Origin: Minisyncoccia bacterium
Lineage (GTDB): Bacteria > Patescibacteriota > Minisyncoccia > UBA6257 > 2-01-FULL-56-20
DNA: 64,000 nt
Reading direction: 5' to 3'
Assembly (NCBI GenBank): GCA_050015515.1
Contig: JBEKBG010000002.1
Coordinates: 18,777-82,776, forward strand
Shown: positions 4,818-60,325 of the stretch, in pieces
Layout: the number at the start of each line of letters is the position of its first letter
Position numbering within the stretch: the stretch's first letter is position 1
Program-made: the position numbers and the translations under genes
The notes under the pieces: model-generated
The model's database searches: none
What the model saw: only the letters and a program-made list of their open reading frames with translations
What the model was told of the DNA's origin: nothing

Positions 4818-6935
4818 ATGCCCCGACAATATTCCATCGAGAAGACCCGCAACATCGGCATCATCGCGCACATCGATGCGGGTAAGACGACCGTCAGTGA
4901 ACGCGTGCTTTTTTATACCGGCGTTTCGCACAAGATCGGCGAGGTGCACACGGGCGACACGGTGATGGATTGGATGGAGCAGGAACGCGAGCGCGGCATC
5001 ACGATCACGAGCGCCGCGACGACCGCGTTCTGGACGCCCACGTATCACGCCGCGGGTCCCGACCATAAAAACTTCGAGCACCGCATCAACCTGATCGACA
5101 CTCCGGGCCACATTGACTTTACCGTGGAGGTAAAGCGCTCGCTGCGCGTTTTGGACGGCGCGGTCGTCGTATTCGACGGCGTCGCCGGCGTGGAGCCGCA
5201 GTCGGAGACCAACTGGCGCTACGCGGACGATTACAAAGTGCCGCGCATCTGCTTTATCAACAAGCTCGACCGCGCCGGCGCGGACTTTGAAAAGAGCTTC
5301 AAGTCCATCCTTGACCGCCTCACCCAGAACGCGATCCCGATCCAGCTGCCGATCGGCACCGAGGCGAACTTTAGCGCGGTCGTGAACCTGCTCGAGAACA
5401 AGGCGTATACCTTCGAAGGGGAGCACGGCGAGAATATCGTAGAGATCCCGATCCCGGCAGATATGATGGAGACGGTGGCAAAGCATCGCCATGATCTCAT
5501 CGAAAAGATCGCGGAGAACGACGACATCGTGATGGCGAATTACTTGGACGGAAAAGAGATCTCACTCGAGGACCTTCGCAAGACGTTACGCAAAGGCGTC
5601 ATCGCAAACACGATCGTGCCGGTCATGTGTGGTTCGGCGCTCAAGAACAAAGGCGTGCAGTTTATGTTGGATGCCGTCATCGAATACCTGCCGTCGCCGG
5701 CGGACATGCCGCCGATCATGGCGCATGACGAAAAGACGGGCGAAATTGTGCCGGTCAAGCTTACCGACGAAGAGCACTTTGCGGGTTTGGCCTTCAAGAT
5801 CGCAACGGATCCGTTCGTAGGAAACCTGGCGTTCTTCCGCGTCTATGCCGGCGTCCTTAAGAAAGGCTCGTATGTGTATAACTCCACGAAGGGTCAGCAG
5901 GAGCGCGTCAGCCGTATCGTCCGCATGCACGCGAACGACCGCGAAGAAGTGGACGAGGTCTACTCCGGCGAGATCGCCGCAATCGTGGGCTTAAAGGGCA
6001 CCACCACCGGCGACACATTGTGCGATCCGGATCACGCCGTCATTTTGGAAAAGATCACGTTCCCGGAGCCGGTCATCGGGTTGCGCATCGAACCGAAGAC
6101 AAAAGCGGACCAGGAGAAGATGGGCATTGCATTGCATCGCTTGGCGGAAGAAGATCCGACGTTCCGTGTGGAAGGCGATAACGAGACGGGGGAGACGATC
6201 ATCTCCGGCATGGGCGAATTGCACTTGGACATCATCGTGGACCGCATGAAGCGCGAGTTCAACGTCGGCGCAAACGTGGGTCGGCCGCAGGTGGCATACC
6301 GCGAAACGATCACGGCGGAAGCCGAGGGCGAAGGCAAGTACATCAAGCAATCCGGTGGACGCGGTCAGTACGGTCACGTTAAGTTGCGCGTAAAGCCGGG
6401 AGAAAAAGGCTCGGGATTCGTGTTCGTTGACGCAATCAAAGGCGGTTCCATTCCGAAAGAATTCATCAACCCAACAGAGAAAGGCGTCAAAGAAGCGATC
6501 GATAAAGGTATTGTCGCCGGCTATCACATGGTAGACGTGGAGGTAGAGCTCTACGATGGTTCGTTCCACGAGGTGGACTCTTCCGAAGCGTCATTCAAGA
6601 TCGCGGGTTCCATGGCATTCCAGGACGCAGCCAAGAAAGCCAAGCCGGTCATTCTCGAACCGATCATGAAGATCCAGGTCATCGTGCCGGACAACTTCAT
6701 GGGCGAGGTCACGGGCAACGTCAGCGGCAAGCGCGGCGCCATCGAATCGATCGACGATCGTCCGGGTCAGCTCAAGGTGGTGAATGCCAAAGTGCCGTTG
6801 TCCGAATTGTTTGGTTACGCTACCGAGCTTCGCTCGATGTCACAGGGGCGTGGTTCATTTACGATGGAATTTGATCACTACGAGGCGGCACCGCGCAATG
6901 TGACGGAGCAGATTATTGAGGGGAAGAAGCGCTAA
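4818..6935 (+). CDS. fusA: elongation factor G
   Basis: [17 protein letters not shown], full EF-G domain order; 705 aa; about 12-aa insertion after switch region. Confidence 0.97.
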
Positions 6936-7059
6936 AACAATATAGGGCACATGCTTTTGAAAGGACGGCGTTCCAGCCTGCTGGCTGGCCGCCTTGGCTC
7001 TCGCCGCCTTCGCGGCTCCGAGACACCTTTCAAAAGCATGTGCCCTATGTTGTTTTAGC
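6931..7059. repeat. long palindromic element, family 1 (34-bp arms plus conserved about 60-nt core)
   Basis: Arms GCTAAAACAATATAGGGCACATGCTTTTGAAAGG / reverse complement (1 G-T mismatch); 5' arm contains the fusA stop codon; core ACGGCGTTCCAGCCTGCTGGCTGGCCGCCTTGGCTCTCGCCGCCTTCGCGGCTCCGAGAC. Confidence 0.8.
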
Positions 7060-7151
7060 GACCCGTTTCAGAGTGATCTGCGGCACGGTGTTCTTGGGCC
7101 GGAGATGAAGGTAGTCTAGCGAATTAATAAGTGCTAACATGTTAAATATAG

Positions 7152-12505: not shown

Positions 12506-13705
12506 ATGGCAGAAAAAGAAAAGTTCGATCGGTCCAAGCCGCACCTTAACGTAGGTACGATTGGTCACGTCGATCATGGCAAGACCACGTTGACCGCGGC
12601 CATCACTCACGTGTTGTTCATGAAGGGCTGGACAAAAAAAGAAGAGAACGTAAATCAGATCGACAACGCTCCAGAAGAGAAGGCGCGTGGTATCACTATC
12701 GCGTTGCATCACTCGGAATATAATTCGGAGAAGCGCCACTACGCGCACGTGGATGCTCCGGGACACGCAGACTATATTAAGAACATGATCACCGGTGCCG
12801 CCCAGATGGACGGCGCGGTGCTCGTCGTCGCCGCGACCGACGGCCCGATGCCGCAGACGCGCGAGCACATCTTGCTCGCTCACCAGGTCGGTGTGCCGAA
12901 CATCATCGTGTTCCTCAATAAAGTTGATATGGTGGATGATCCGGAATTGATCGATCTCGTGGAATCCGAAGTTCGTGAGCTTCTCACGAAAAATGGATTT
13001 GACGGCGAACATGCGCCGGTCATCCGCGGTTCCGCATTGAAGGCATTGAACGCAACCTCGGCCGATTCTCCGGATGCCAAGCCGATCCTCGATCTCGTGA
13101 AGGCGATGGATGATTACTTCCCAGATCCGGTTCGCGAACTCGACAAGCCGTTTCTTATGCCGATCGAAGACATATTCTCGATTGAAGGCCGTGGCACGGT
13201 CGTCACGGGACGCATTGAGCGCGGCAAGGTGAAGGTGAACGAGGAAGTTGAGGTCGTTGGCCTTAAGCCGACCCAGAAGACCGTCGTCACCGGAATCGAA
13301 ATGTTCAACAAGAGTTTGGACGAAGGCCAGGCAGGCGATAACGCCGGTTTGCTCCTCCGCGGCCTCAAGAAAGAGGACGTGGAGCGCGGACAGGTTTTGG
13401 CCAAGCCGGGCAGCGTGACCCCGCACGCGGAGTTCGAAGGCGAGATCTATGTGCTTTCGAAAGAAGAGGGCGGCCGCCACTCTCCGTTCTTTAAGGGCTA
13501 CAAGCCGCAGTTCTACATCCGCACGACCGACGTGACGGGCGAGGTTACCCTTCCGGAAGGAATGGAAATGGTCATGCCGGGTGATACCGTCAAGATTACC
13601 GTCAAGCTTATCACCCCGGTCGCTTTGGAAGACAAGATGCGTTTCGCCATCCGCGAGGGAGGCAAGACCGTTGGCGCCGGCGTCGTGACCAAAATAATTA
13701 AGTAA
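12506..13705 (+). CDS. tuf: elongation factor Tu
   Basis: [27 protein letters not shown]; 399 aa; AT-rich upstream with no SD. Confidence 0.97.
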
Positions 13706-13816
13706 GCAACATAAAACCGCCTTACGGGGACGGGTCGCGGCCTGCTAGCCGCGCCCTAACGCTCGGCACCTTCGTGCCTCCGCGATTCCCCTTAAAGGCG
13801 GTTTTATATTGCTTAC
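13702..13816. repeat. long palindromic element, family 1 (divergent member) after tuf
   Basis: Arms GTAAGCAACATAAAACCGCCTT / AAGGCGGTTTTATATTGCTTAC include the tuf TAA; core has CGCGGCCTGCTAGCCGCG and GGCACCTTCGTGCC hairpins homologous to the family-1 core with compensatory changes. Confidence 0.75.
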
Positions 13817-13911
13817 GTTTTTAAATTTTGTCACGACGCCGCGCGTCTCCGGTTCTCTTCGGGAGGTGTTTTTGTTCGAGTGTTGAGGAGATACTCGGGC
13901 CTGAGCGACAT

Positions 13912-16102: not shown

Positions 16103-16426
16103 ATGGCCAAAACAGACGTTCCCCAAAAACTGCGCTTGCGCATAAAGTCCTACGATCACAAACTGATCGACAATTCGGCACGCCAGATCATCGAGGCCGC
16201 CGAGCGGAACGATGCGAAAGTGACGGGGCCGATCCCGCTTCCCACGGAAGTAAAGCATTACACCGTCAACCGTTCGACCTTTGTCCACAAGGACGCTCGC
16301 GAGCAGTTCGAGCTCCGCATTCATAAGCGCCTCGTCGAAATATTGAATCCCAACCAGAAAATCATCGAATCACTTTCGAACCTGAATCTTCCTGCGGGCG
16401 TGGATATAGAAATAAAGATGGTTTAA
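16103..16426 (+). CDS. rpsJ: 30S ribosomal protein S10
   Basis: [23 protein letters not shown]…VTGPIPLPT; separated from rplC by a 3.9-kb insertion. Confidence 0.9.
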
Positions 16427-16507
16427 AACAAAAGCCCCCTCCTTTGCAAACGGAAATGCCACGTAGGAACGTGACCGTTTGCAAAGGAGGGGGCTTTTGT
16501 TTTAAAC
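16421..16507. repeat. long palindromic element, family 2, overlapping rpsJ stop
   Basis: Arms GTTTAAAACAAAAGCCCCCTCCTTTGCAAACGG / reverse complement (33 bp, perfect); arm contains GTT-TAA of rpsJ; core AAATGCCACGTAGGAACGTGA. Confidence 0.8.
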
Positions 16508-16693
16508 CGTGGACACCATAAGAAGAAGATTCAGAGAGCTTTACTGTCCATAAATGTTCGATCCCCGCGTCTCTTATGAAACACGGGGATCAGGGGAAAA
16601 TCCCGAATTGTTCCTTAATTGTATCGCGCCACCAGGATAAATCAAAAAGTTTTTAATAATTTTTTAATCTTTGAAAATGGTATAGTGAAGAAA

Positions 16694-18058: not shown

Positions 18059-18088
18059 TGTGGCTTTGGGCTGTGATATAATAGTGCT

Positions 18089-18631: not shown

Positions 18632-18643
18632 TAAGACACTCTT

Positions 18644-19186
18644 ATGGGAGGAATCATCGTCGGCATCATCTTGATACTTATCGGCATCAGTGCCCTCACC
18701 GGCATTCCGTTTTTTGGTTTCCTCTTCGCCATCGTTCTTATCGCAATCGGCGTCCGCATGATCGCGCGGCGTTCGGTGCATAGCGGATGGCGCTGGGACG
18801 ATTATGACCACGATCATGACCATAACCATACGCACAAAACCGCGTCGGGCGAACGGAGCATCGACGAGGTCGCCATCTTCAGCCCGCTCAACAAATCCTA
18901 CACCGCTGAGCATTTTAAAGGAGGGAAGATCGTCATGGTCTTCTCCGGCGGAGAAGTGAATCTTACCCAGATCAAAACCGACGAGACCGAGATTCACCTG
19001 GAAGTCTCATCCATCTTCAGCGGCATTGAGATCGTCGTCCCCAAGGATTGGAAAGTAAAATCCAGCGCCAACGTCTTCCTCGGTAACGTAGACACGAGCG
19101 CTGCCCAAGGCGGTGACGGCACCACAACGCTGATCATCCACGGCGAAGCCGTCTTCGGGGAGATTGAGGTGCGGAAACAGAAGTAA
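18644..19186 (+). CDS. LiaF-like (DUF2154-type) membrane protein
   Basis: Two N-terminal TM helices, DHDHDHNH linker, C-terminal beta-rich domain with GG/VFLGNVD patterns as in LiaF/YvqF C-terminal domains. Confidence 0.5.
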   Translation: MGGIIVGIILILIGISALTGIPFFGFLFAIVLIAIGVRMIARRSVHSGWRWDDYDHDHDHNHTHKTASGERSIDEVAIFSPLNKSYTAEHFKGGKIVMVFSGGEVNLTQIKTDETEIHLEVSSIFSGIEIVVPKDWKVKSSANVFLGNVDTSAAQGGDGTTTLIIHGEAVFGEIEVRKQK

Positions 19187-19202
19187 TTATAATATTGAAG
19201 TC

Positions 19203-19892: not shown

Positions 19893-19930
19893 GCGGCTTC
19901 GTATGCCAAGTGGCGATGTGGCCCTGCCTC

Positions 19931-20053
19931 CTTTCTTATGCTTTTTGAGGGACTATCGGAGGCCGCGAAGGCGGCCGAGATGGAGCGCCCGCGCAGCAGC
20001 GCGGGACGCGTGCCCGAAAAAAGCATAAGAAAGGAGGAAGGGCCGGAGCCCAT
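19931..20053. repeat. long palindromic element, family 1 (inverted core orientation)
   Basis: Arms GCCCTGCCTCCTTTCTTATGCTTTTT / AAAAAAGCATAAGAAAGGAGGAAGGGC; core reverse complement contains GGCCGCCTTCGCGGCCTCCGA and CCCGCGCTGCTGCGCGGG hairpin. Confidence 0.75.
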
Positions 20054-20327
20054 TTGACATTACACCCCGCTTTGCTATAATCGTCATCAAGGTTTGCTCG
20101 GACAGTTTTTATGCAAATATTTACCTCTTTAGCCTCGGTCTACGAACGCGAAATGCATTCGCGATCAGGCGCAGAAAAACGGTCGCCGTTTTCTCTGAAT
20201 CCCGTATAAAAGCGGGGTAGGTAGGTTGGTTTTGTAAAAAACTCCGGTTCCAAGCCGGAGTTAATCAATTTTTACTGGATTCCGAGCGTGCTCATTCAAA
20301 GGAGTGCCCCTCCGGACGATCAAGAAA
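20054..20327 (+). promoter_or_regulatory. promoter TTGACA-N16-TATAAT plus about 240-nt leader with attenuator-like hairpin upstream of rplC
   Basis: TTGACA 20054-20059, TATAAT 20076-20081; leader hairpin AACTCCGG-TTCCAA-GCCGGAGTT followed by AATCAATTTTT, reminiscent of the L4-regulated S10 leader. Confidence 0.45.
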
Positions 20328-28496: not shown

Positions 28497-28937
28497 ATGA
28501 AACTTCATTCACGAACTTCTCTCCGCCCTAAGCGTCTTCAGCGCATCGGCCGTAGCGGCAAGCGCGGCAGTTATTCCGGCCGTGGTGTCAAAGGACAGCG
28601 CTCCCGCTCGGGACACCGCATCCGTCCGGCGGAACGCGATATCATTCTGAAGATCCCGAAGATGCGCGGATTCCGGAATAAGGAAAAGGCTGATGCGCCC
28701 GTCGTGTTCAATCTCGGTACGCTTTCCGGCAAGCTGAAGATACACGTGAGGGTTGGCGCCCCGCTTGAGGTCAGCTATGCACTTTTAAAGACCGTAAAGT
28801 TGTTAAAGAAAGATTATAAAGGCGTCGTAAAGATCCTTGGAACGGGGGATATCGCGTTCCCGATCGCTATCAGTGGCTTTGAAGTGTCAGCCAGCGCGAA
28901 AGCAAAAATCGAGAAAGCCGGTGGTAGTGTAAAATAA
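28497..28937 (+). CDS. rplO: 50S ribosomal protein L15
   Basis: Basic Gly-rich N-terminus RPKRLQRIGRSGKRG…; 146 aa. Confidence 0.92.
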   Translation: MKLHSRTSLRPKRLQRIGRSGKRGSYSGRGVKGQRSRSGHRIRPAERDIILKIPKMRGFRNKEKADAPVVFNLGTLSGKLKIHVRVGAPLEVSYALLKTVKLLKKDYKGVVKILGTGDIAFPIAISGFEVSASAKAKIEKAGGSVK

Positions 28938-29004
28938 AACAAATATGAACAGCCCTTTGCCTCCCCAAGATGGACCGTTCGGCAAAGGGCTGTTCATATT
29001 TGTT
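28938..29004. repeat. perfect 24-bp-arm palindrome between rplO and secY
   Basis: AACAAATATGAACAGCCCTTTGCC-(19 nt TCCCCAAGATGGACCGTTC)-GGCAAAGGGCTGTTCATATTTGTT; begins right after the rplO TAA. Confidence 0.8.
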
Positions 29005-29033
29005 TCCTTGTTTGTTTAATATAAGATAAAGAC

Positions 29034-30305
29034 ATGGAAAGATTTCTACAGATATTCAAAGTAAAGGAGCTCCGCAACAAGATCCTCATCGTGTTGGGGC
29101 TTTTGGTTGCCTATCGTGTGCTTGCCGCGATTCCGATCCCAGGGGTGAATGCGCAGGCGCTCCAGAATTATTTCAATTCCAACCAGCTGCTCGGGTTCCT
29201 CAACTTCTTCTCCGGTGGCGGACTCGCGAACCTTTCGGTCGTGATGCTTGGCGTCGGCCCGTACATCACTTCCACCATCGTCATGCAGCTCATGACCATC
29301 ATCTTCCCGAAGATGAAGGAGATGTATTACGAGGAGGGCGCCCGCGGCCAGGCGAAGTTCAACCAATACTCGCGTTTGCTCACCGTGCCGTTCGCGTTCG
29401 TGCAGTCCTACGGATTCCTGAGTCTGCTCATGTCGCAGGGCGTGATCCCGCATCCGGACGCGTTTGACCTGATCCGTAACGTGATTGTGATCACGTGCGG
29501 CTCGATGCTCGCGCTCTGGCTCGGCGAACTCATCACCGAAGAGAAGGTGGGCAACGGCATCTCACTCATCATCTTGGCTGGTATCCTGGCGCGCATCCCG
29601 CAGAGCGTCGGAACCGCGTTCGCGTCCTACACCGCCCAGCTTTTGACCTCGTATGTTGGGTTCCTCGTCGTGGGACTATTGCTCATCGCTGGCGTTGTAT
29701 ATCTGAACGAAGGCGAACGGAAAATACCTGTTGCGTACGCAAGGCGTGTTCGCGGCACCAAAATGTACGGTGGCGCACAAAGCTATCTGCCTCTCAAGGT
29801 GAATCAGGCGGGCATGATTCCGCTTATCTTTGCGATCTCCGTCCTGCTCTTCCCGCAATTCCTGGCAACGATCATCGCGCTCTTTTCGGCATCGTGGGGG
29901 CTAAAGGTAAGTGCCTTTGCGCAGGCCTTTGTGGCAAACCAGTTGTGGTACGGCATATTCTATTTCCTACTGGTATTTATCTTTACGTATTTCTATACCG
30001 CGATCACGTTCAATCCGGAAGAGGTTGCCAAAAATCTCCAGCAGAGCGGGGGATTTGTGCCGGGCATCCGGCCGGGCGAGAACACGGAGAAGTTCTTCCA
30101 TGGCGTGGTAAACCGCATCACGTTCTTCGGCGCGGCGTTCCTTGGTCTTATCGCGATCCTGCCGATCATCGTGCAATCGATCACGGGGGTCTCGGTTCTT
30201 ACGATCAGTGGCACCGCGTTATTGATCGTCGTTGCGGTTGCGCTCGAGACCATGCGCATGGTGGATTCGCAGTTGACGGTGAGGGAATATGAGGGCATAG
30301 AATAA
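29034..30305 (+). CDS. secY: preprotein translocase subunit SecY
   Basis: 423 aa, 10 TM, characteristic LGVGPYITSTIVMQL… GG…. Confidence 0.95.
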   Translation: MERFLQIFKVKELRNKILIVLGLLVAYRVLAAIPIPGVNAQALQNYFNSNQLLGFLNFFSGGGLANLSVVMLGVGPYITSTIVMQLMTIIFPKMKEMYYEEGARGQAKFNQYSRLLTVPFAFVQSYGFLSLLMSQGVIPHPDAFDLIRNVIVITCGSMLALWLGELITEEKVGNGISLIILAGILARIPQSVGTAFASYTAQLLTSYVGFLVVGLLLIAGVVYLNEGERKIPVAYARRVRGTKMYGGAQSYLPLKVNQAGMIPLIFAISVLLFPQFLATIIALFSASWGLKVSAFAQAFVANQLWYGIFYFLLVFIFTYFYTAITFNPEEVAKNLQQSGGFVPGIRPGENTEKFFHGVVNRITFFGAAFLGLIAILPIIVQSITGVSVLTISGTALLIVVAVALETMRMVDSQLTVREYEGIE

Positions 30306-30412
30306 AACACCCCTCCTTTGAAAGGACGGCGTTCCGGTCTGCTGACCGGCCGCCTTGGCTCTCGCCGCCTTCGCGGCTCCGAGACACCTTTCGAAGGAAG
30401 GGTGTGTTATTC
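30300..30412. repeat. long palindromic element, family 1 (near-identical core to 6931-7059)
   Basis: Arms GAATAAAACACCCCTCCTTTGAAAGG / CCTTTCGAAGGAAGGGTGTGTTATTC (3 mismatches); arm includes the secY TAA; core differs from the fusA copy only by compensatory CCAGCC…GGCTGG to CCGGTC…GACCGG. Confidence 0.8.
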
Positions 30413-30516
30413 TATGCCTGGTGACTAGAGAAAGAAGTATTGATAAACGATTGACGGATTTTCTAATGAAAGATATAATACCGCCAGGCTTCAAATAGGT
30501 TCTAGGAGGAAAGATC

Positions 30517-39962: not shown

Positions 39963-40084
39963 TGTTCTTGTGTTAGCCCCCGCAAGCGAGGATGCAGAAC
40001 ATTAAATTTCTATTACAGTTTACTACAAATTTGAGAGATAACAAGCTTGGTAAAATTTAATGATTTTTTAATGGTGAATATGGT

Positions 40085-40717
40085 ATGTATGGAGGTATGA
40101 ATACAATAGAGGAAAAGCTTATTATAAAAATGTATATTGAAGATAAATTTTCCGCTGTCCAAATCAGCGAATTTGTACATATCTCGGTTTCGAAAATTGT
40201 TCGCATTCTAGACGTCAATAACGTTCAGAAAAGAAATATAAGCGAAGCTATTACACAGCTTAATATAACGAAATTTCACAAAGTGCCATTTCAACTAAAA
40301 TCGAACCTTTCTCCGGTTGAAAACGATTTGAAATTAACCGGGATAATGTTATATTGGGGCGAGGGTGCAAAGACGGGGGGTGGAGTAAAATTTGCTAACA
40401 GTAATCCCGAGATGATCTGTGTTTTCCTCCGTTTTTTAAGGGAAATCTGTGGGGTTAATGAAAAAAGGATAAAAATGATGATCCATTTGTATCCCGACCA
40501 AAGTAGCGACCTATTGAAAAACTTTTGGTCCTCTACTACGGGAGTTGGGTTAGAAAATTTTTATAGACCCCATGCGCTTGTAGGCAAAAAAGGTACGTAC
40601 AAAAATAAATCCATTTATGGTACCGCAACGATCAACTACAGCGATAAAAAGTTATTGACACTAATATTAAAATGGATAGAGGATTATAAAAATAGTTTTT
40701 TTAAATTGCCGGAGTAG
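40085..40717 (+). CDS. hypothetical protein with N-terminal HTH (sigma-70 region-4-like)
   Basis: AT-rich ORF; IKMYIEDKFSAVQISEFVHISVSKIVRIL HTH-like; 3' end overlaps the tRNA by 10 nt. Confidence 0.4.
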   Translation: MYGGMNTIEEKLIIKMYIEDKFSAVQISEFVHISVSKIVRILDVNNVQKRNISEAITQLNITKFHKVPFQLKSNLSPVENDLKLTGIMLYWGEGAKTGGGVKFANSNPEMICVFLRFLREICGVNEKRIKMMIHLYPDQSSDLLKNFWSSTTGVGLENFYRPHALVGKKGTYKNKSIYGTATINYSDKKLLTLILKWIEDYKNSFFKLPE

Positions 40718-40779
40718 CTTAATGGTAAAGCAACGCTTTTGTAAAGCGAAGAGTGGGGGTTCGATTCCTCTCTCCGGCT
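40708..40779 (+). tRNA. tRNA-Thr (anticodon TGT), no encoded CCA
   Basis: GCCGGAG-TA-GCTT-AATGGTA-AAGC-A-ACGCT-TTTGTAA-AGCGA-AGAGT-GGGGG-TTCGATT-CCTCT-CTCCGGC-T; T-loop TTCGATT. Confidence 0.65.
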
Positions 40780-40780
40780 C

Positions 40781-41389
40781 ATGGATTTAAAATCAACATA
40801 CAATCGTATTGCGGAGGACTGGGATAACGATCATACCAATGATCAGTGGTGGAAAGAGGGATTGGAAAAATTTACTTCCTTGTTTAAGGCGGGAGCCAGT
40901 ATTCTTGATGTGGGTTGTGGAAGTGGGGTTAAAGCGGAAATTTTGGAAAAGAAGGGGCTGAAAGTAACCGGTATTGATTTTTCGGAAAAGATGTTAGAAA
41001 TCGCAAAGCGACGAGTGCCGAATGGAAATTTCCAGCTTGTTGATCTTTATAATCTTCCCAATTTCCACGAAAAATTCGGTGGCATATTTGCGCAGGCGGT
41101 ACTGTTGCATATCCCTAAAAAAGATATTGGGAAGATAGTCCGTTCTTTGAAAGAAAAACTTAATCCTGGCGGATATTTTTACGTGGCAGTCAAAGAGCGG
41201 AGGCTTGGCGAGAAAGAAGAAGAAATAGTGAAAGAAAACGACTATGGCTACGAGTATGAAAGATTTTTTAGCTACTTCACCACGGAAGAGGTAAAAAATA
41301 TTTTCATGAGCGAGGGATTGGATATTGTATATGAAAGCACTACCCATTCCGGCCGGCGGAATTGGATACAGGTCGTTGGAAAGGCCTAA
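40781..41389 (+). CDS. class I SAM-dependent methyltransferase
   Basis: ILDVGCGSGVKAEILEKKG motif I; ATG immediately after tRNA. Confidence 0.75.
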   Translation: MDLKSTYNRIAEDWDNDHTNDQWWKEGLEKFTSLFKAGASILDVGCGSGVKAEILEKKGLKVTGIDFSEKMLEIAKRRVPNGNFQLVDLYNLPNFHEKFGGIFAQAVLLHIPKKDIGKIVRSLKEKLNPGGYFYVAVKERRLGEKEEEIVKENDYGYEYERFFSYFTTEEVKNIFMSEGLDIVYESTTHSGRRNWIQVVGKA

Positions 41390-41439
41390 TAGGGTTATCG
41401 CGCATGGCGTAGTGTTTTCTTTTCTGATAAAATAAAGGA

Positions 41440-42570
41440 ATGATACGGTATCTTAGCAAAACGAGCCCGAAGGAGCTCGCGGGGGCGGCGTTATTGCGTT
41501 TGGACTTCAATACGGAAGACGACTGGCGGATGCGCGCGGTACTTCCGACCATTAAATTATTATTAAAAACCAGCGGGCGGATCGTGATCGTCAGCCATCG
41601 CGGGCGGCCGGTTTGGTTCGACAAAAATCTGAGCTTGCGCGGCGATGCGGTAAAACTTTCCAAACTGCTCGGCGGCAAAAAAGTGACGTTCATCAATCAC
41701 TTTCGCTTTGCGGAAATAAAAAAGCAGGTGGCCGCCGCGCCGCGCGGTTCTATCTTTCTCCTGGACAACTTGCGATTTTTGCCCGGCGAGGAAAGGAATG
41801 ACGTGAAATTGGCGAAGGCGCTCGCCTCGCTCGCGGATTTCTATGTGAACGATGCTTTTGCGGTCTCACATCGCGCAGACGCGTCGGTGGTCGCCATTAC
41901 GAAATTCTTGCCGAGCTATGCGGGTATTGAAATGGAAAACGAGATCAAGTCGCTCGGCAAAGCGATTGTAAAGCCGAAGCGCCCGGTGGGGCTCGTACTC
42001 GGTGGCGCGAAGGCGTCGGATAAGCTCGGGGTCATCGCGCATTTTAAAAATAAGGCGGACTGGTTCTTACTTGGCGGCGGATGCGCGAACACGATCCTTT
42101 GGCTGAAAGGAATGGATGTCAAGAATTCCATCAAAGATAGCGACCCGAAGGAGCTCGCGGCGCTCAAGAAAATCGCGGCATTTAAAAACGTGATCTTACC
42201 CACAGATTTTGTTTGGGGCAATGGCGATGGTGGTACAAAGAGCGCCATTTTCGACATCGGACCGAAGACCGTGAATGCCTTCGATAAAAAGATCGCGGCC
42301 GCGTGGACGATCATCTGGAGCGGCCCGCTTGGGCTCATCGAGAAAAAAAAGTATGCGAAGGGGAGTATCGCCATCGCACGCGCAATCGCTAATAATCGCA
42401 GAGCGTTCTCCGTGTCCGGCGGGGGAGAGACGGTAATGTTCCTCAAACAGTACAAGCTCGACAAAAAATTTAGCTTTATCTCGACCGGCGGCGGCGCTAT
42501 GGTAGATTTTCTTGCGGGAAAAAAGTTACCGGGCATCGAGGCGCTCAGGAGCACTCAGGTAAAATATTAA
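41440..42570 (+). CDS. pgk: phosphoglycerate kinase
   Basis: RLDFN… N-domain, hinge, C-domain GGGA…; 376 aa. Confidence 0.9.
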   Translation: MIRYLSKTSPKELAGAALLRLDFNTEDDWRMRAVLPTIKLLLKTSGRIVIVSHRGRPVWFDKNLSLRGDAVKLSKLLGGKKVTFINHFRFAEIKKQVAAAPRGSIFLLDNLRFLPGEERNDVKLAKALASLADFYVNDAFAVSHRADASVVAITKFLPSYAGIEMENEIKSLGKAIVKPKRPVGLVLGGAKASDKLGVIAHFKNKADWFLLGGGCANTILWLKGMDVKNSIKDSDPKELAALKKIAAFKNVILPTDFVWGNGDGGTKSAIFDIGPKTVNAFDKKIAAAWTIIWSGPLGLIEKKKYAKGSIAIARAIANNRRAFSVSGGGETVMFLKQYKLDKKFSFISTGGGAMVDFLAGKKLPGIEALRSTQVKY

Positions 42571-47074: not shown

Positions 47075-49648
47075 ATGGCAGACGAATTATCACTCGACGC
47101 GCTTGCGAAGAAAACGCCCGACGAGATCTTTGCGGCGCTCAAAACCTCCGCGCGTGGGCTTTCCGCGCAAGAGGCGGCCGCGCGGCTCACGACCTACGGC
47201 CCGAACGAGTTTGCGGGTCGGAAAAAACTCCAGCCACTTTTGATATTTCTTTCCAAATTTCGGAACCCGCTGCAGATCCTGTTGATCGTCGCGGCGATCA
47301 TCTCCGGCATTTTGGGATCACACATCGAGGCGATCATCATTTTAGTGATCGTGTTCGGCAGCGCGTTCATCGATTTCTTCAATACGTATAAATCCGCACA
47401 GGCGGCGGAGGCGCTGCAGGAAAAAGTGACGATCACCGCGGCGGTGATGCGCGGCGGTGAGTTGAAAGAGCGCTCGTTGCGCGAAGTGGTGCCGGGAGAT
47501 GTTTTTACGCTGGAAGCGGGGGATCTGGTCCCCGCCGACGCGATCGTCATTGAAGCGCATGATTTGTTTTTGAACGAAGGCGTGCTGACGGGGGAATCGT
47601 TGCCGGTGGAGAAAGAGGCGGGGGTCGCGACGGGCGCGTCGGCATCGACGGGGTTCGCCGCGCGGACCATCCTCCTCGGCACCAGCGTGGTTTCCGGCAA
47701 CGGCACGGCGGTGGCGGTGCTGACGGGCGCGCACACGAGCGTAGGCAATATCGCAGACAAGCTCAAGCGCCCGGACGCACCGACAGAGTTTGAAAAGAAC
47801 CTCAAAGATTTCAGTCTGTTCATTTTCCGCACTACGTTATTTCTGGTACTCGCCGTCATCTTGCTGAATATTTTTGTGATCCGACGCGATCCGTTGCAGA
47901 TTTTCATCTTTGCAGTCGCGATCGCGGTCGGCCTCACGCCGGAGCTGTTGCCGCTCATCGTCACGAGCAATCTCGCCAAGGGCGCCATCGAGATGTCCAA
48001 AAATGGCGTCATCGTCAAGAAGCTGGCGGCGATCCACAACTTTGGTAGCGTGGATGTGCTTTGCACGGACAAGACCGGTACGCTCACGGAAGATCGCATC
48101 ACTTTGATAAAATGTGTGGACGTCATGGGCGTAGAGAGCGATGAGACGAATCTGTGGGGTTATCTGAGCAGCAAGAACTTGACCGGTGTGCGTGGCGTAC
48201 TTGACGAAGCGATAGAGGAATTTAAAAAAATAGATATCGCCGGTTGGGAAAAGGTAGATGAGATCCCGTTCGATGCCGAGCGAAAGCTGGAATCGGTGAT
48301 CGTAAAAAAAGGGAAGGATACCGTGTTAATCGCAAAGGGTGCCCCAGAAGAGATTTTAAAGATAGCGGATCATTACGACGGACATCTCAGCGTGAGCGGT
48401 AAAGCGATCAAGCCGAAAAAACTCACGCCCGCGCTCCGCGCCAAGATCAATAAAGAGTACGAGGCGCTCTCCGCCGACGGCTTCCGCGTGCTCGCGCTCG
48501 GTATAAAAGAGGTCGCGCATAAGACGACGCCGTATAGCAAAAAAGACGAGAGCGATATTTCCTTCGTCGGTTTCCTCGCATTCCTCGATCCGCCGAAAAA
48601 GAGCGCCAAGGACACGCTTGCCAAGATGGCGGCGTATCACGTGGCGATCAAGATCATCACCGGTGACAACTTTTTGGTGACGAAAAAAATCGCGGACGAG
48701 ATCGGTCTGCCGATCATCGGTGCGCTCACGGGCGATGAGATGGCAAAGATGAACGAGCACGAACTTCACGCCAAGGTGGAGACGGCGAACATCTTTACGC
48801 GTGTCAACCCGGAGCAGAAGGAACACATTATTCGCATCTTGCGCGAGAACAAGCACGTCGTGGCGTATATGGGCGACGGCGTGAACGATGTCCTCTCTAT
48901 TAAGGAGGCGGACGTTGGCATCTCCGTCAATAACGCAGTGGATATTGCCAAGGAAACGGCAGACATCATTTTGCTGCGCAAAGGACTCGGCGAAATCATC
49001 GACGGCATCGTGGAGGGCCGCAAGACGTTCGCCAACACGTTCAAATATCTGATGATGGCGCTCTCGTCAAACTTCGGCAACATGTTCAGCATGCCGATCG
49101 CGTCCGTCTTCCTGCCGTTCCTGCCGATGACCGCGCCGCAGATCTTGCTCAACAACTTTCTCTACGATTCGTCACAGCTCTCAATCCCGTTCGACAAAGT
49201 GGACCAGGATTTCCTCGCACGGCCCAAAAAATTCAACATCGCGTACATGAAGAAGTTCATGTACATCTTCGGTCCGCTGTCGTCGCTCTTTGATTTTGCC
49301 ACGTTCGGCGTTCTACTCCTTGTGCTACATACGAATGGCATGGCGTTTCAGACCGGCTGGTTCCTAGAATCCATCGCCACGCAAACGCTTGTCGTGAACA
49401 TCATCCGGAGCAAGTTTAACTTCTGGCAGAACGGGGGACCGAGCAAAGCGCTCGTCCTCGCCACGTTCGGCGCCGTCGCCGTCGGCTGGGGGATCACGTA
49501 CTCGTTCCTCGGTCCCGCGTTCGGCTTCGCGAAGTTCGGGCTGTATCCGGTGTTGCTTATCTTGGTGATCGTTGCGGCATATCTGCTACTCGTGGAGTTC
49601 GTAAAAAAGTATTTCTTTAGGAAGTATGAATATTTGATAGAGAAATAA
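47075..49648 (+). CDS. P-type ATPase, MgtA-like (Mg2+ importing)
   Basis: DKTGTLT, TGES, MGDGVNDVLS motifs; N-terminus resembles MgtA (…LSAQEAAARLTTYGPNE…); adjacent mgtC-family gene. Confidence 0.8.
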   Translation: MADELSLDALAKKTPDEIFAALKTSARGLSAQEAAARLTTYGPNEFAGRKKLQPLLIFLSKFRNPLQILLIVAAIISGILGSHIEAIIILVIVFGSAFIDFFNTYKSAQAAEALQEKVTITAAVMRGGELKERSLREVVPGDVFTLEAGDLVPADAIVIEAHDLFLNEGVLTGESLPVEKEAGVATGASASTGFAARTILLGTSVVSGNGTAVAVLTGAHTSVGNIADKLKRPDAPTEFEKNLKDFSLFIFRTTLFLVLAVILLNIFVIRRDPLQIFIFAVAIAVGLTPELLPLIVTSNLAKGAIEMSKNGVIVKKLAAIHNFGSVDVLCTDKTGTLTEDRITLIKCVDVMGVESDETNLWGYLSSKNLTGVRGVLDEAIEEFKKIDIAGWEKVDEIPFDAERKLESVIVKKGKDTVLIAKGAPEEILKIADHYDGHLSVSGKAIKPKKLTPALRAKINKEYEALSADGFRVLALGIKEVAHKTTPYSKKDESDISFVGFLAFLDPPKKSAKDTLAKMAAYHVAIKIITGDNFLVTKKIADEIGLPIIGALTGDEMAKMNEHELHAKVETANIFTRVNPEQKEHIIRILRENKHVVAYMGDGVNDVLSIKEADVGISVNNAVDIAKETADIILLRKGLGEIIDGIVEGRKTFANTFKYLMMALSSNFGNMFSMPIASVFLPFLPMTAPQILLNNFLYDSSQLSIPFDKVDQDFLARPKKFNIAYMKKFMYIFGPLSSLFDFATFGVLLLVLHTNGMAFQTGWFLESIATQTLVVNIIRSKFNFWQNGGPSKALVLATFGAVAVGWGITYSFLGPAFGFAKFGLYPVLLILVIVAAYLLLVEFVKKYFFRKYEYLIEK

Positions 49649-49720
49649 AAATACCCTAGGCATCTCGCTCCGACGTAAGCACGTCCACTCGCTCAATGCC
49701 TAGGGTATTTTTATTTCTCT
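49639..49720. repeat. long palindromic element, family 3, overlapping ATPase stop
   Basis: 25-bp arms AGAGAAATAAAAATACCCTAGGCAT / reverse complement containing GAG-AAA-TAA; core CTCGCTCCGACGTAAGCACGTCCACTCGCTCA. Confidence 0.8.
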
Positions 49721-49732: not shown

Positions 49733-49760
49733 TTGACAAATAATATGGATATTCTATTAT
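49733..49760 (+). promoter_or_regulatory. promoter TTGACA-N16-TATTAT
   Basis: TTGACA 49733-49738, TATTAT 49755-49760. Confidence 0.5.
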
Positions 49761-49766
49761 CCTCCA

Positions 49767-49975
49767 TAGTAGCGGCACTCGCGCGGGCTCATCGGGATTT
49801 CGTTCCCGTGTCAGAGCATAACCCATGTCATGCCTTGGCTGTTCTCCATCCGCCATGTGCCACCGGGTTGCCTATCGCGCACCGACCGCGCTGAGGAAGG
49901 GTAGCGGATTACAGTTTATACCTTCAAACAGAACCACACGAGATGCACTTCCGCTTTGCATCTCGTTTTAATTTT
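49767..49975 (+). ncRNA. candidate about 210-nt small RNA between mgtA-like and mgtC genes
   Basis: Bounded by consensus promoter and terminator CGAGATGCA-CTTCCGCTT-TGCATCTCG-TTTT; no ORF; convergent with mgtC-family gene. Confidence 0.3.
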
Positions 49976-49989
49976 ATGCAGGTCGAGGA

Positions 49990-53493: not shown

Positions 53494-53967
53494 ATGGAAC
53501 AAACCACCCTCTGCTTTTTATTGAACGATCGCGGGGAAGTGTTGCTTGCCATGAAGAAGCGTGGATTCGGCGTCGGAAAGTGGAACGGTATCGGGGGAAA
53601 GGTACGGGAAGGGGAGGACGTCGTTGCATCGGCGATGCGGGAAATAAAGGAAGAGATTGGTGTCATGGTTTCGCCAAGTGATCTCGAACCGGTAGGGATG
53701 CTGGAGTTTACATACAGCGATAGCCATGACTGGGATCAGGTGTGCAATTTGTTTATCGCGCGGCGATGGAAGGGTGATCCGTCGGAGTCCGAGAAGATGC
53801 GACCGCAATGGTATGCCCGCACGGCAGTGCCATTCGACGCGATGTGGATCGATGACCCGCATTGGCTTCCGCTCGTCCTTGCGGGGAAAAAGATCAAAGG
53901 AAAGTTCTTATTCGAAGACAAGGGCGGCTCGCTCATTAATTTCGCCGTTTCGGAAATTCATTCTTAA
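53494..53967 (+). CDS. NUDIX hydrolase (MutT-like)
   Basis: Nudix box GGKVREGEDVVASAMREIKEEIGV. Confidence 0.8.
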   Translation: MEQTTLCFLLNDRGEVLLAMKKRGFGVGKWNGIGGKVREGEDVVASAMREIKEEIGVMVSPSDLEPVGMLEFTYSDSHDWDQVCNLFIARRWKGDPSESEKMRPQWYARTAVPFDAMWIDDPHWLPLVLAGKKIKGKFLFEDKGGSLINFAVSEIHS

Positions 53968-53979: not shown

Positions 53980-54066
53980 GCAGAAACAAAATAGCAATCC
54001 TGTTTTTGACGGTCATGTTCCGACGTGGCATTTCCGTCAAAAACAGGATTGCTATTTTGTTTCTGC
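53980..54066. repeat. long palindromic element, family 2; 3' arm encodes the C-terminus and stop of the convergent RF1-like gene
   Basis: 33-bp perfect arms GCAGAAACAAAATAGCAATCCTGTTTTTGACGG / reverse complement; core TCATGTTCCGACGTGGCATTT. Confidence 0.8.
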
Positions 54067-54777
54067 GAACGCCTTCACGATCGGATCAAACTCGCCTTCC
54101 ATGATCTTCTCGATGTTGTGCCACTTTTTGCCGAGGCGGTGGTCGGTGATGCGGTCGTCGGGGAAGTTATAGGTGCGGATCTTTTCCGAGCGGTCGGCGG
54201 AGCCGATCTGGTCACGGCGATCCTGGGCGATGTTGCCGGCGGCGCGGATCTGTTCTAATTCATAGAGCTTTGCGCGCAAGACGTCCATCGCTTTCTCGCG
54301 GTTCGCGTATTGCGAGCGCTCCTCGCGCGAGGCGACGACGATGCCGGTGGGCTTGTGCAAAATACGCACCGCAGTTTCCACTTTGTTGACGTTTTGTCCG
54401 CCCGGGCCGCCCGCGCGTGAGAACGTCACCTCGAGATCGTTCGGCGAGACGTTCACTTCGCGCGCTTCCACAATCGGCAAAATTGCCACGGAGGCGGTGG
54501 AGGTATGTACGCGCCCCGCCTTTTCCGTCTTCGGGATGCGCTGCACGCGATGCACGCCCGATTCGTGCTTCAAAGCTTCGTAGCAACCCTCTCCTCTTAC
54601 CTCGGCGGTCAGGCTTTTATATCCTTGCGAATTCTCGCTCGCGTCTAGAATGGAAAAACTCCAACCTCGCCGCGCGGCGTAGCGCTGATACATGCGCGCC
54701 AGATCGCCGGCAAAAATAGAAGCTTCGTCGCCGCCGGCGCCGGCCCGTATTTCCACAATGATCTTGTTGGTGGTCAT
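54052..54777 (-). CDS. peptide chain release factor 1-like protein lacking N-terminal domain 1
   Basis: GGQ motif (…[19 protein letters not shown]…), RF1-type codon-recognition tripeptide PKT; only 241 aa; no room upstream for a domain 1. Confidence 0.7.
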
Positions 54778-55211: not shown

Positions 55212-55603
55212 GAGAGAAACCGTTGATCCTTGTGGTGGATGATGAGCAGGACCTTCGGGAGATCATGGTGTTAAAGTTGAGCGCGTCGGGGTTTGAGGCG
55301 ATCGTCGCTACCGATGCAAAAGAAGGGGTCGCCGCGGCAAAGCAATCGCATCCCGATCTCATATTGATGGACATCCATATGCCGGGCGAGTCGGGAACCG
55401 ACGCGGCGCTTGAGATCAAACAGAATCCGGAAACGAAAGACATCAAAATCGCATTTTTGAGCAACCTCAAAGACCCATGGCCACGAACCGCGCCCGCGCG
55501 CAACGATCTGGCGAAGTCGCTCGGCATGGAGGACTTTATCGATAAAACAGAAGACTTGGATATTACTGTTGCAAAAGTGCGAGAAATTTTAGCACGCGCA
55601 TAG
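55208..55603 (+). CDS. single-domain response regulator receiver (CheY-like)
   Basis: LVVDDEQDLREI…LILMDIHMPG…; 131 aa; overlaps previous gene by 4 nt. Confidence 0.85.
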   Translation: MREKPLILVVDDEQDLREIMVLKLSASGFEAIVATDAKEGVAAAKQSHPDLILMDIHMPGESGTDAALEIKQNPETKDIKIAFLSNLKDPWPRTAPARNDLAKSLGMEDFIDKTEDLDITVAKVREILARA

Positions 55604-55678
55604 CAAAAGACCCTTCTTCTTTTTGACGGTTACGTTCCTACGTGGCATTTCCGTCAAAAAGAAGAAGGGTCTTTTGCT
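55602..55678. repeat. long palindromic element, family 2 between receiver gene and rpmE
   Basis: 28-bp perfect arms AGCAAAAGACCCTTCTTCTTTTTGACGG / reverse complement; core TTACGTTCCTACGTGGCATTT. Confidence 0.8.
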
Positions 55679-55684
55679 ATGCGC

Positions 55685-56321: not shown

Positions 56322-56407
56322 GTCAATAGCAGGGATGCCCGGCCTTATATGCCTCTAGGCAGGTGACCGTTTGGTATACAGGCCGGGCATCCCTGCGCCC
56401 TATTGAC
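56322..56407. repeat. inverted repeat (15-bp core arms CAGGGATGCCCGGCC) whose outer arms carry opposed TTGACA/TGTCAA -35 boxes
   Basis: CAGGGATGCCCGGCC-36 nt-GGCCGGGCATCCCTG; outer GTCAATA…TATTGAC. Confidence 0.6.
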
Positions 56408-56430
56408 ACCCTGCCGCCATTTGCTACAAT
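56403..56430 (+). promoter_or_regulatory. 16S rRNA promoter TTGACA-N16-TACAAT
   Basis: TTGACA 56403-56408, TACAAT 56425-56430. Confidence 0.6.
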
Positions 56431-56587: not shown

Positions 56588-58140
<1,553 letters not shown>

Positions 58141-58271
58141 TAATCTATAAAATTCGTTTTTATAGAGTCGAACTTTCTTCTCTTTGGCCAGCGAATCGAT
58201 CGCAGGCGAAAGCGAGGGAGGTAATTGGGACAACTAAAAAGCTCTTTGTATAAATATGGTAGAATATATCT

Positions 58272-58977: not shown

Positions 58978-59051
58978 AAAAATAAAAAGTATAGCCCTCT
59001 CGCTCCAACGTAGGAACGTCCACTCGCTTGAGGGCTATACTTTTTATTTTT
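58978..59051. repeat. long palindromic element, family 3 after rplS
   Basis: 22-bp arms AAAAATAAAAAGTATAGCCCTC / reverse complement; core TCGCTCCAACGTAGGAACGTCCACTCGCTT. Confidence 0.8.
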
Positions 59052-59578: not shown

Positions 59579-60160
59579 ATGGAAACCGAGATCGAAGCAA
59601 AATTTTTGGACATCGATCCTATCGCAGTGCGCGCGAAGTTAAAAGCGCTTGGCGCGGCGCTCATCTATCCCGAAGTGTTGATGAAACGAAAAGTGTTCGA
59701 TCATCCGACGAACAAGCAAAGCGATTGGCTCCGAGTGCGCGATGAAGGGGATAAGATCACGATGAGCTATAAGAAGGTCATCGATCGGACGGTGCATGGC
59801 ACCAAAGAGATAACCATAAAAGTTTCCAATTTTGATGATGCGTGCGCGATCCTCTTGGCGGCACAGCTTCGGCAGGCGGCGTATCAAGAAACGCGTCGGG
59901 AAACATGGCGGTTGGATGAAACGGAGATCATGATAGACACGTGGCCGTGGATACCGACCTTTGTAGAGATCGAAGCGCCTTCCGAAGAAAAGTTAAAAGC
60001 TGCGGCAAGAAAATTGGGATTGCAATGGGGTGATGCGCTCTATGGCAGTGTGGAACCGGCATACCAAAAATATTACGACGTGACCGAAAAAGAAATCGAT
60101 AGCTGGCCGGAGATAGTTTTTGGCCCCGTTCCCGACTGGCTCCTCCGGCGGAAAAAATGA
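59579..60160 (+). CDS. CYTH-domain protein (triphosphate tunnel metalloenzyme / class IV adenylyl cyclase-like)
   Basis: N-terminal EIEAKF (ExExK) motif; 193 aa. Confidence 0.75.
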   Translation: METEIEAKFLDIDPIAVRAKLKALGAALIYPEVLMKRKVFDHPTNKQSDWLRVRDEGDKITMSYKKVIDRTVHGTKEITIKVSNFDDACAILLAAQLRQAAYQETRRETWRLDETEIMIDTWPWIPTFVEIEAPSEEKLKAAARKLGLQWGDALYGSVEPAYQKYYDVTEKEIDSWPEIVFGPVPDWLLRRKK

Positions 60161-60173
60161 TTTGATGCGATCT

Positions 60174-60302
60174 CCAGAAAAGGACAAGCCCAGTACATTC
60201 TTTTGAGGGTATGCCGGAGCCGCGAAGGCGGCGAGGCGTAGCGATTTTTCAGTAGAAAAATACGCGACCCTCAAAAGAATGTACTGGGCTTGTCCTTTTC
60301 TG
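60174..60302. repeat. long palindromic element, family 1 (inverted core orientation)
   Basis: 35-bp perfect arms CCAGAAAAGGACAAGCCCAGTACATTCTTTTGAGGG / reverse complement; core reverse complement contains CTCGCCGCCTTCGCGGCTCCGGC. Confidence 0.8.
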
Positions 60303-60325
60303 ATGGTCTGTTATAATCATTTCCA

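Follow-up and report, generated by a model that had tools for sequence, protein, structure and literature searches.

We examined a long, perfect hairpin at positions 53980-54066 of a 64-kb stretch of DNA, referred to here as the window, from the genome of an uncultured member of the Patescibacteria (Paceibacterota). The hairpin is located between two convergent genes, a release-factor-like gene on the minus strand and a NUDIX gene on the plus strand. Its 33-nt arms (53980-54012 and 54034-54066) are 100% complementary, 38 nt pair at 95%, and the loop is 21 nt long. As RNA, 53980-54066 has a predicted folding energy of -57.3 kcal/mol (z = -14.6 relative to dinucleotide shuffles); none of the 200 shuffled sequences was as stable. 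The release-factor-like open reading frame (ORF) ends in GCA GAA ACA AAA TAG (54066-54052), wholly within the arm, and positions 53980-53994 are the exact reverse complement of these codons. The ORF encodes an N-terminally short release-factor-like protein. We also considered whether it could be prfB with a programmed frameshift. This was ruled out, as translation of the upstream sequence revealed neither the N-terminal part nor a CTTTGA site.

Next, we compared the window with loci from relatives, which are designated below by L numbers and share ~76-82% nucleotide identity with it. A contig scan with L4 returned distant relatives (at most 82% identity) together with many unrelated phyla, and the closer loci were obtained through protein searches and contig look-ups. 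The loci cover small parts of each relative genome. Genes in the metagenomic loci were called by simple ORF heuristics and considered with their Pfam annotations; for the window itself, 39 ORFs were scanned against Pfam. Besides the near-identical contigs L001 and L002, we found no relative within the genus or species with a difference at the hairpins, and no strain-level empty site was found for any hairpin. All comparisons are between species (~80% nucleotide identity).

The tail A-E-T-K-stop of the release-factor-like protein is common to the window, L083, L136, and L142, and the hairpins of those relatives are either different or flipped. Therefore, the codons of the release-factor-like gene are original and 53980-53994 is the derived copy. 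The original prediction, made from the letters of the window, had correctly read 54052-54066 as the last four codons and TAG of this gene, but had the gene take them from the other arm; the direction of copying is the opposite. Among 120 homologues, the tail that follows the residues PIVKAF is hypervariable (AETK, AEQK, EQQPK, AGQEK, SESPKQQS, and others). In L136-138, the arms at this locus are identical to those of the window and the loop, which we call the type A core, is flipped, with 18 of 21 positions identical once it is reverse-complemented.

The hairpin is one of at least 12 long hairpins in the window, the other eleven being of the same style. They span 69-168 nt, with arms of 17-36 bp and loops of 19-71 nt, and are listed in Table 1 with the genes they adjoin. 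For fusA, tuf, rpsJ, secY, and the genes for the P-type ATPase, the release-factor-like protein, the response regulator, and the CYTH protein, the stop codon lies within an arm. At three other genes, an arm begins on the final base of the rplO stop, directly past the rpmE stop, and 3 nt past the rplS stop. For most elements, the stop codon falls within -12 to +12 nt of the arm start. The expectation that an arm starts at or includes the host stop codon in at least eight cases thus agrees with the coordinates, with rplS as an exception in detail. Two hairpins carry additional outer blocks. At tuf, the outer block (CGGCGTCGTGAC...) corresponds to the tuf codons G-V-V-T and has an inverted copy at 13826-13841. 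At 60155, the outer block AAATGATT contains the CYTH stop (60158-60). The hairpin at 55596-55684 is orthologous to L083:1049-1133. The same locus has a type D hairpin (L083:343-419) at the place corresponding to 56329-56396, with unrelated arms.

Table 1. Hairpins of the window and parts of the hairpin at 53980-54066, in window coordinates
Feature	Position	Strand	Details
Arm distal to release-factor-like gene	53980..54012		53980-53994: inverted copy of the gene's end (four codons and TAG); 54003-54012: inner stem TTTTTGACGG, as is typical for type A
Type A core	54013..54033	-	AAATGCCACGTCGGAACATGA on the minus strand; mini-hairpin CACGU-NGGA-ACRUG; inverted in the orthologous hairpin of L136-138
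Arm proximal to release-factor-like gene	54034..54066		54052-54066 is codons A-E-T-K and stop
Release-factor-like gene	54052..54777	-	241 aa; PCRF (partial) and RF-1 domains; N-terminal domain absent
Convergent NUDIX gene	53494..53967	+	Stop 13 nt before the hairpin; untouched by the hairpin
fusA 3' end, type B	6930..7060	+	Stop 6933-35; arm begins CGC TAA; 35-bp arms; 61-nt three-way-junction core
tuf 3' end, type B (tuf subtype)	13678..13841	+	Stop 13703-05; inner arms from 13695/13702, beginning inside AAG TAA; outer block 13678-13693 / 13826-13841
rpsJ 3' end, type A	16420..16508	+	Stop 16424-26; 34+34 bp, perfect
Directly upstream of rplC operon promoter, type B	19920..20044	-	Antisense to flanking genes; conserved in L144, degenerate in L147
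Between rplO and secY, type D	28937..29005	+	rplO stop 28935-37; 25+25 bp, perfect; loop TCCCCAAGATGGACCGTTC
secY 3' end, type B	30294..30418	+	Stop 30303-05; arms include GGC ATA GAA TAA; orthologues in L144, L148, L003 with compensated changes
P-type ATPase 3' end, type A'	49639..49720	+	Stop 49646-48; 25+25 bp; outer 10 bp, AGAGAAATAA / TTATTTCTCT, represent the conserved E-K-stop codons with their copy
rpmE / response regulator, type A	55596..55684	-	34+34 bp, perfect; rpmE on minus strand, stop 55685-87; regulator on plus strand, stop 55601-03 inside the arm
D-like hairpin before 16S rRNA gene	56329..56396	+	17+17 bp; followed by promoter-like site 56403-56430
After rplS, type A'	58978..59051	+	rplS stop 58972-74; 22+22 bp; orthologous hairpins in L092, L099, L086
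Between CYTH and secD, type B	60155..60322	-	Antisense to both genes; inner arms 36 bp, perfect; 3' arm overlaps promoter-like site 60290-60317

The gene ends that reach into the arms are conserved in relatives that have a different hairpin or none. The fusA terminus IIEGKKR-stop is kept in L005, which has no matching hairpin, and the C-terminus of tuf is conserved in all relatives. A tblastn search had suggested that EF-Tu is truncated at residue 384 in relatives, but this was an alignment artefact. Likewise, IEIKMV-stop of rpsJ is kept in L003, L144, and L147, REYEGIE-stop of secY in L004, L005, and L147, and EYLIEK-stop of the ATPase in L083 and L084. In L086 and L087, the ATPase hairpin site is empty, with the ATPase and mgtC stops 12 nt apart. 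Therefore, the coding arm represents the ancestral state, and its exact complement on the far side of the hairpin was derived by copying. The length of this inverted copy is 6 nt at fusA, 7 nt at rpsJ, 10 nt at the ATPase gene, 12 nt at secY, 15 nt at the release-factor-like gene, and up to 28 nt (imperfect) at tuf. The original prediction had proposed a comparison of orthologous gene ends, expecting genomes without the element to have identical C-termini and to lack only core and 3' arm. Conserved C-termini are what we observed for fusA, tuf, rpsJ, secY, the ATPase gene, and the release-factor-like gene.

Between rpmE and the convergent response regulator gene, copies of this kind were observed in relatives on either side. 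The regulator of L093 ends in ...ILARDSKQ-stop, versus the usual ...ILARA-stop, because its last codons, AAG CAA TAA, are the inverted copy of the rpmE codons K-Q-stop. In L142, 13 nt of the regulator's conserved EILAR codons are found inverted directly behind the rpmE stop.

The stems exist independently of the cores. In L144 and L147, rpsJ is followed by a plain terminator, CAAAAA(G/T)CCCCGC-GAAA-GCGGGGATTTTT, whose stem is homologous to that of the window. The window sequence at this place is AACAAAAGCCCCCTCC-(TTTGCAAACGG-core-CCGTTTGCAAA)-GGAGGGGGCTTTTGTT, with a type A module in place of the relatives' tetraloop. At tuf, the homologous stem GTAAGCA..AAA..CCCCTC / GAGGGG..TTT..GCTTAC encloses a core of type B in the window and L144, type D in L147, and type E in L003, each with its own inner stem; in general, inner stems accompany their cores. 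The arms of type A' hairpins share the consensus AAAA(T/C)ACCCAYYGCTGTT at non-orthologous loci, and an A-run with a (T/G)ACCC motif is also present in arms of other families and in plain terminators. Plain perfect terminators with arms of 17-20 bp and loops of 2-8 nt are common in the same genomes. The hairpin between rplO and secY is a whole insertion, as four relatives have a spacer of 5-26 nt only at this position.

We were able to align ten orthologous hairpin pairs, nine of which could be scored by column. The nine pairs showed 17 compensated substitutions versus 12 differences in one arm, and indels were mirrored. At rpmE, for example, the window and L083 differ by three indels, every one of them present in both arms, and by compensated substitutions as well. 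At tuf, the window and L144 have a synonymous GGC/GGT difference, and the outer copy mirrors the change. Type A' arms contain 33 mismatches in 1041 pairs; read on the core-sense strand, A.C accounts for 17 of them and G.U for 8, with no preference for wobble pairs. Loops are flipped at orthologous sites in two independent cases, one in L108 compared with L101, L111, L116, and L134, and the other in L136-138 compared with the window, as described above. The hairpins at tuf and 60155 and one in L142 each have an outer block of perfect matches, set off from the inner stem by 9-13 unmatched nt, which suggests separate extension events. The mismatch statistics, as well as the orientation statistics given below, are based on a few dozen elements.

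The loops fall into a small set of conserved families. In the window, three core motifs have 3, 4, and 2 copies, versus 0-0.08 expected by chance. Type A has a 21-nt core, AAATGCCACGTAGGAACGTGA, with the inner stem TTTTTGACGG/CCGTCAAAAA, and its window copies are at 16420, 53980, and 55596. Type A' (TCGCTCC-RRCGTARGMACGYC-CACTCGCT) is found at 49639 and 58978. Type B is a three-way junction of 56-71 nt with two small hairpins (loops YURCU and CUUC) and a CTTTTGAAAGG-like inner stem, and is found at 6930, 13678, 19920, 30294, and 60155. Type D (..GATGGACCGTTC) is present at 28937, and 56329 fits it only loosely. Families E and F were seen only in relatives. A pattern scan of metagenomes for A' gave 48 loci with ~45 distinct A' hairpins, and a covariance model of type B identified 21 copies in 465 kb of related sequence. 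Across 380 kb of related loci, we counted 74 distinct hairpins.

The type B structure is supported by covariation. Of all cells, 91.8% are paired, and changes on both sides were observed in 92 cells versus 29.6 in shuffles, with 0 of 500 shuffles reaching the observed value; one-sided intermediates are nearly absent from its helices. The tuf-subtype core is identical over 56 nt between species of ~81% nucleotide identity, though the arms differ. Where a single gene ends at the hairpin, A' cores are oriented in sense in 14 cases versus antisense in 2. The type B copies before rplC and between CYTH and secD are stably antisense. A search of the whole window against Rfam at gathering thresholds returned nothing but rRNA and tRNA, and a search of three hairpin regions at a permissive E-value returned only generic models of long hairpins (miRNA precursors), with scores far under gathering. 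Hammerhead, twister, pistol, hatchet, and hepatitis delta virus-like ribozymes, CRISPR and TIGR repeats, parS, and a -35 role for the TTGAC-like inner stems were all judged by eye and rejected, as the conserved nucleotides or spacing seemed to be absent, and the lack of Rfam hits backs this judgement.

Additional features of individual modules were observed. Families A, B, D, and E, though unrelated, have inner stems that read alike, with a T-run and G..GG on the 5' side and CC..C and an A-run on the 3' side (TTTTTGACGG, CTTTTGAAAGG, TTTTTCCGA, TTTTTGGACC; examples are window 54003-54012 and 6954-6964, and L091:1032-1041). At the secY end of L148 (L148:14098-14213), the type B core has an extra hairpin of ~26 nt (CTCT-CACGGGATTCCTA-AGAG) inside the first hairpin; in secY of the same locus, ATA has become ATC, a synonymous change that has no counterpart in the opposite arm. 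Decayed copies were also seen. L138:805-850 is an A' hairpin from which most of the core is deleted between CCCACT repeats, and it resembles a plain terminator. L142:5946-6040 is a type B element that retains the core and the 5' inner stem, has lost the 3' arm, and adjoins a deletion of NUDIX genes. Lastly, one lineage (L136:34-240 and L138:877-1083) has a small gene of the PDDEXK_11 family (68 aa) between rpmE and the response regulator gene, beside a decayed hairpin.

Both strands of all hairpins have a G+C-rich part followed by a T-rich part, such as GGAGGGGGCTTTTGTTTT and GGGTATTTTTATTT, in which the T-run is paired with the upstream A-run. A simple terminator scan is blind to these long hairpins, as it only accepts loops of up to 8 nt. 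Close behind hairpins, promoter-like sites are found at 49733, 56403, 60290, and ~20057. From this sequence architecture and from their position (at stop codons, between convergent genes, or shortly ahead of a promoter), the hairpins appear to be bidirectional terminators or insulators. The gene order around several of them is also of interest. At 6935-20300 of the window, the fusA-tuf-rpsJ-rplC cluster is broken by unrelated genes, namely those for Fic, Bro-N, DUF5647, SAM synthetase, TspO, homoserine dehydrogenase, two LiaF-like proteins, and a methyltransferase. In L005 and L007, fusA, tuf, rpsJ, and rplC are close together with short spacers only, and L144 and L147 have other inserts. The hairpins are located at the junctions of the interrupted cluster, which fits an insulating role.

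Taken together, we think it probable that these elements are long-stem bidirectional terminators of a Paceibacterota lineage, and that template switching during replication is what preserves their perfect arms, turns their loops around, and lengthens their stems into coding ends. The palindromes would mark the boundaries of transcription units, with the order (A-rich)(G+C-rich)-loop-(G+C-rich)(T-rich), right at the stop codons of a compact genome. At such a hairpin, the nascent strand may fold back, copy itself for a few to a few dozen nt, and then rejoin the template. Self-copying of this kind would transfer changes and indels from arm to arm, such that the arms stay perfect, and would invert the loop now and then. 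The palindrome could also grow outward when the reverse complement of one flank is written onto the other. In most cases, the inner flank belongs to the 3' end of a selected gene, and the gene end would then act as the donor, with the opposite arm gaining the inverted last codons and stop. As selection fixes the coding arm, information is expected to pass from the gene end to the opposite arm. Where genes converge, the copy may overwrite the poorly constrained C-terminal tail of the neighbor. The loops of most hairpins carry a module, that is, a core with its own short T-run/A-run inner stem, and modules would be exchangeable between stems. In the literature, template switching is known to produce and preserve perfect hairpins in a single step (PMC8794818), homogenizes the arms of inverted repeats and inverts their spacers (PMC8604942), and has been proposed to keep bacterial inverted repeats perfect (PMC5941160); the abstract of PMC13100816 describes expansion of inverted repeats by the same process. 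In another system, a very long stem gives a terminator its resistance to antitermination (PMC10325885).

We considered several other explanations for the same data. One is that the palindromes were produced by assembly or amplification chimeras, as strand-displacing polymerases and some assemblers can make inverted chimeras. There is next to no chance of this: two independent assemblies of the window species, from ENA and JGI, are 99.9% identical and both contain the hairpins, orthologous hairpins with co-varying arms are present in other species in many other metagenomes and from many assemblers, and the hairpins are inside contigs, between intact genes. The original prediction had described each insertion as a conserved core plus an inverted copy of 25-35 nt of upstream flank. 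In this single-step process, a mobile core would integrate downstream of a gene and snap-back synthesis would make the entire 3' arm, leaving the 5' arm as pre-insertion host sequence. The outermost arm segments (6-28 nt) are indeed derived inverted copies of conserved gene ends, the G+C-rich arm portions are locus-unique within the window, and the rplO hairpin is wholly novel compared with four relatives. The rest of the stem does not fit. It is homologous in relatives that carry a GAAA loop (rpsJ) or, across three core families, another core (tuf), and L136 has identical arms around a flipped core; for the bulk of the stem, both arms thus occur in relatives without the core, an outcome that the prediction itself had named as refuting it. 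This does not apply to the outermost, gene-derived segment. Furthermore, inner stems such as TTTTTGACGG and CTTTTGAAAGG are conserved with each core and hence are not host flank, A' arms share a consensus at non-orthologous loci, and the detached outer blocks of tuf, 60155, and L142 imply separate events. We therefore regard a single-step origin as quite unlikely. Two further points of the prediction stand, namely that the arrangement is unlike a direct target-site duplication, as no direct repeats were seen flanking the hairpins (the rplO insertion included), and that the data are compatible with snap-back or template-switch copying.

Movement in trans as REP/MITE-like (miniature inverted-repeat transposable element) non-autonomous transposons, for example by a RAYT/IS200-type HUH enzyme that recognizes hairpins, would make the overlap with gene ends a matter of target choice at A-rich stop regions. 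The multi-copy conserved families at many unrelated loci of several species (~45 A'; 21 B in 465 kb) are what such elements would produce, as are the different families at the same site in close relatives and the insertion of a whole hairpin at rplO. We nevertheless consider this unlikely, as conservation is found in the loop and inner stem and not at the termini, direct target-site duplications were not seen, and the copied coding ends, mirrored indels, and flips would be left unaccounted for. The Pfam scan of 39 window ORFs and the Pfam annotations of genes in the fetched relative loci, which are a small part of any genome, revealed no transposase, integrase, or reverse transcriptase. For the spread of the modules, movement in trans may still apply. 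Selection could also act alone on functional RNA stems, for mRNA 3'-end protection or termination, with perfection and stop overlap arising from point mutation and selection for pairing. Persistence at the same site across species of ~80% nucleotide identity, the sense bias of A' cores, and the strong covariation in the arms and type B core can all be cited for it. It is nonetheless very unlikely, given that indels are mirrored in both arms, that constrained coding sequence is copied exactly over 12-15 nt, and that loops are inverted at orthologous sites. In addition, G-U mismatches are not in excess over A-C, type B helices are nearly without one-sided intermediates, and perfect pairing over 33-36 bp seems to exceed what stability needs.

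Several points also weigh against long-stem terminators maintained by template switching, the explanation we prefer. Termination is deduced from position and architecture, the T-run is itself paired with the A-run, and loops of 19-71 nt are far above canonical terminator size. The rplO hairpin, an entire insertion with unique arms and no earlier terminator, has an origin that template switching does not account for. The sense bias of A' and the strong conservation of the cores point to a strand-specific function outside this explanation. Furthermore, recombination between arms or hairpin-directed repair could yield the same loop inversions and arm conversion.

How modules move between loci is a separate question. 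It is possible, though we hold this only tentatively, that the loop modules A, A', B, D, E, and F are protein-independent mobile elements that reside in the apical loops of terminators. They would spread or be swapped by inter-locus template switching or short-patch conversion and be kept for an action at mRNA 3' ends, with their own folding driving palindrome growth into genes and the rewriting of C-termini. If this is true, the 61-71 nt three-way junction of type B, for example, would be a new functional RNA. Candidate identities for the cores include selfish loop-dwelling modules, RNA-protein sites, or processing signals.

The hairpins have much in common with published inverted repeats attributed to template switching, as in quasipalindrome correction (Monttinen & Loytynoja 2022, PMC8794818; Abraham & Hazkani-Covo 2021, PMC8604942; Lavi et al. 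2018, PMC5941160). In both, neighboring sequence is copied as its reverse complement, compensated changes span several bases, arms are homogenized, spacers are inverted, and amino acids are altered where arms reach into genes. Our hairpins differ in being genome-wide and on one functional class, gene-end hairpins. Their perfect arms are 17-36 bp long (17-28 bp for A') and reach up to 28 nt into conserved genes, and their loops are conserved repeat families; for these hairpins, we infer the mechanism from its footprints. Intrinsic terminators, including the long-stem TerR of pLS20 (PMC10325885), also have a G+C-rich stem between an A-run and a T-run and are found directly after stop codons, between convergent genes or before the next promoter. 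The usual stem of intrinsic terminators is about 5-15 bp with a loop of 3-8 nt, whereas the stems described here are two to four times longer, with A-run and T-run perfectly paired, and the loops of 19-71 nt have conserved, structured content.

Repetitive extragenic palindromic (REP) and BIME sequences of Proteobacteria are also multi-copy palindromes at gene 3' ends and between convergent genes, and are transcribed with the upstream gene. REP elements have a role in mRNA stabilization, and gene conversion is said to have been proposed for their evolution by Higgins et al. in 1988. A REP is an extragenic palindrome of 14-40 nt whose stem is a genome-wide consensus (PMC12306157). In REP the stem is conserved and coding overlap is rare, whereas in our hairpins (69-168 nt) conservation is confined to loop and inner stem, outer stems are particular to each locus, and stop codons are overlapped. 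No RAYT was found among the window ORFs scanned. Terminator-like MITEs, such as Correia/CREE of Neisseria, ERIC, and RUP, are small, dispersed, intergenic, non-coding inverted repeats with possible effects on transcription or mRNA stability. MITEs have conserved terminal inverted repeats and direct target-site duplications; the outer ends of our hairpins, in contrast, vary between copies, and there are no flanking direct repeats. Integron attC sites are imperfect palindromes at gene 3' ends with conserved structure and variable sequence that function as folded single strands. Their outer R and L boxes are conserved and the center is variable, and they need an integrase and attI. The arrangement of conserved and variable parts is the opposite in our hairpins, and integrase and attI are not present here. 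What sets the hairpins apart from all systems compared is that very long perfect stems, modular conserved loops with inner stems of their own, outer stems that differ by locus, and recurrent inverted copies of gene ends occur together. A search on palindromic or hairpin repeats of Patescibacteria and the candidate phyla radiation (CPR) returned no description of these elements within the literature it covered.

If our explanation is correct, the hairpins would be a natural, genome-wide case of template switching shaping functional hairpins, where the cited work concerned proteobacterial inverted repeats, rRNA genes, and yeast. It would also give a simple path by which the C-terminal tails of convergent genes are rewritten free of selection, and would add several conserved structured motifs, outside Rfam, at the 3' ends of highly expressed genes of Patescibacteria. 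The gene expression signals of this group are almost unknown, and the motifs are open to direct tests for a role as terminator, insulator, RNA-protein site, or ribozyme.

Four other regions of the window were noted. Right behind the ATPase hairpin, 49733-49985 contains a promoter-like TTGACA-16-TATTAT, followed by ~230 nt and then a hairpin with a T-run (ACGAGATGCA...TGCATCTCGTTTTAATTTT). The stretch has no Rfam match and is wholly missing in L086 and L087; it is a candidate small RNA gene. At ~20050-20300, a strong promoter (TTGACA..TATAAT) and a leader of ~250 nt lie upstream of rplC, nearly base-for-base the same in L144 and L147. This leader has no Rfam hit at the gathering threshold and may be a ribosomal-protein leader. 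The 16S rRNA gene at 56603-58141 is solitary, with no 23S rRNA gene behind it; a response regulator gene, rplS, and tRNA-Leu come next. Lastly, 40001-42000 has a GC content of 0.42 versus ~0.52 elsewhere and contains tRNA-Thr, an ORF without a Pfam match (40085-40717), and a methyltransferase gene, and this region may be foreign DNA.

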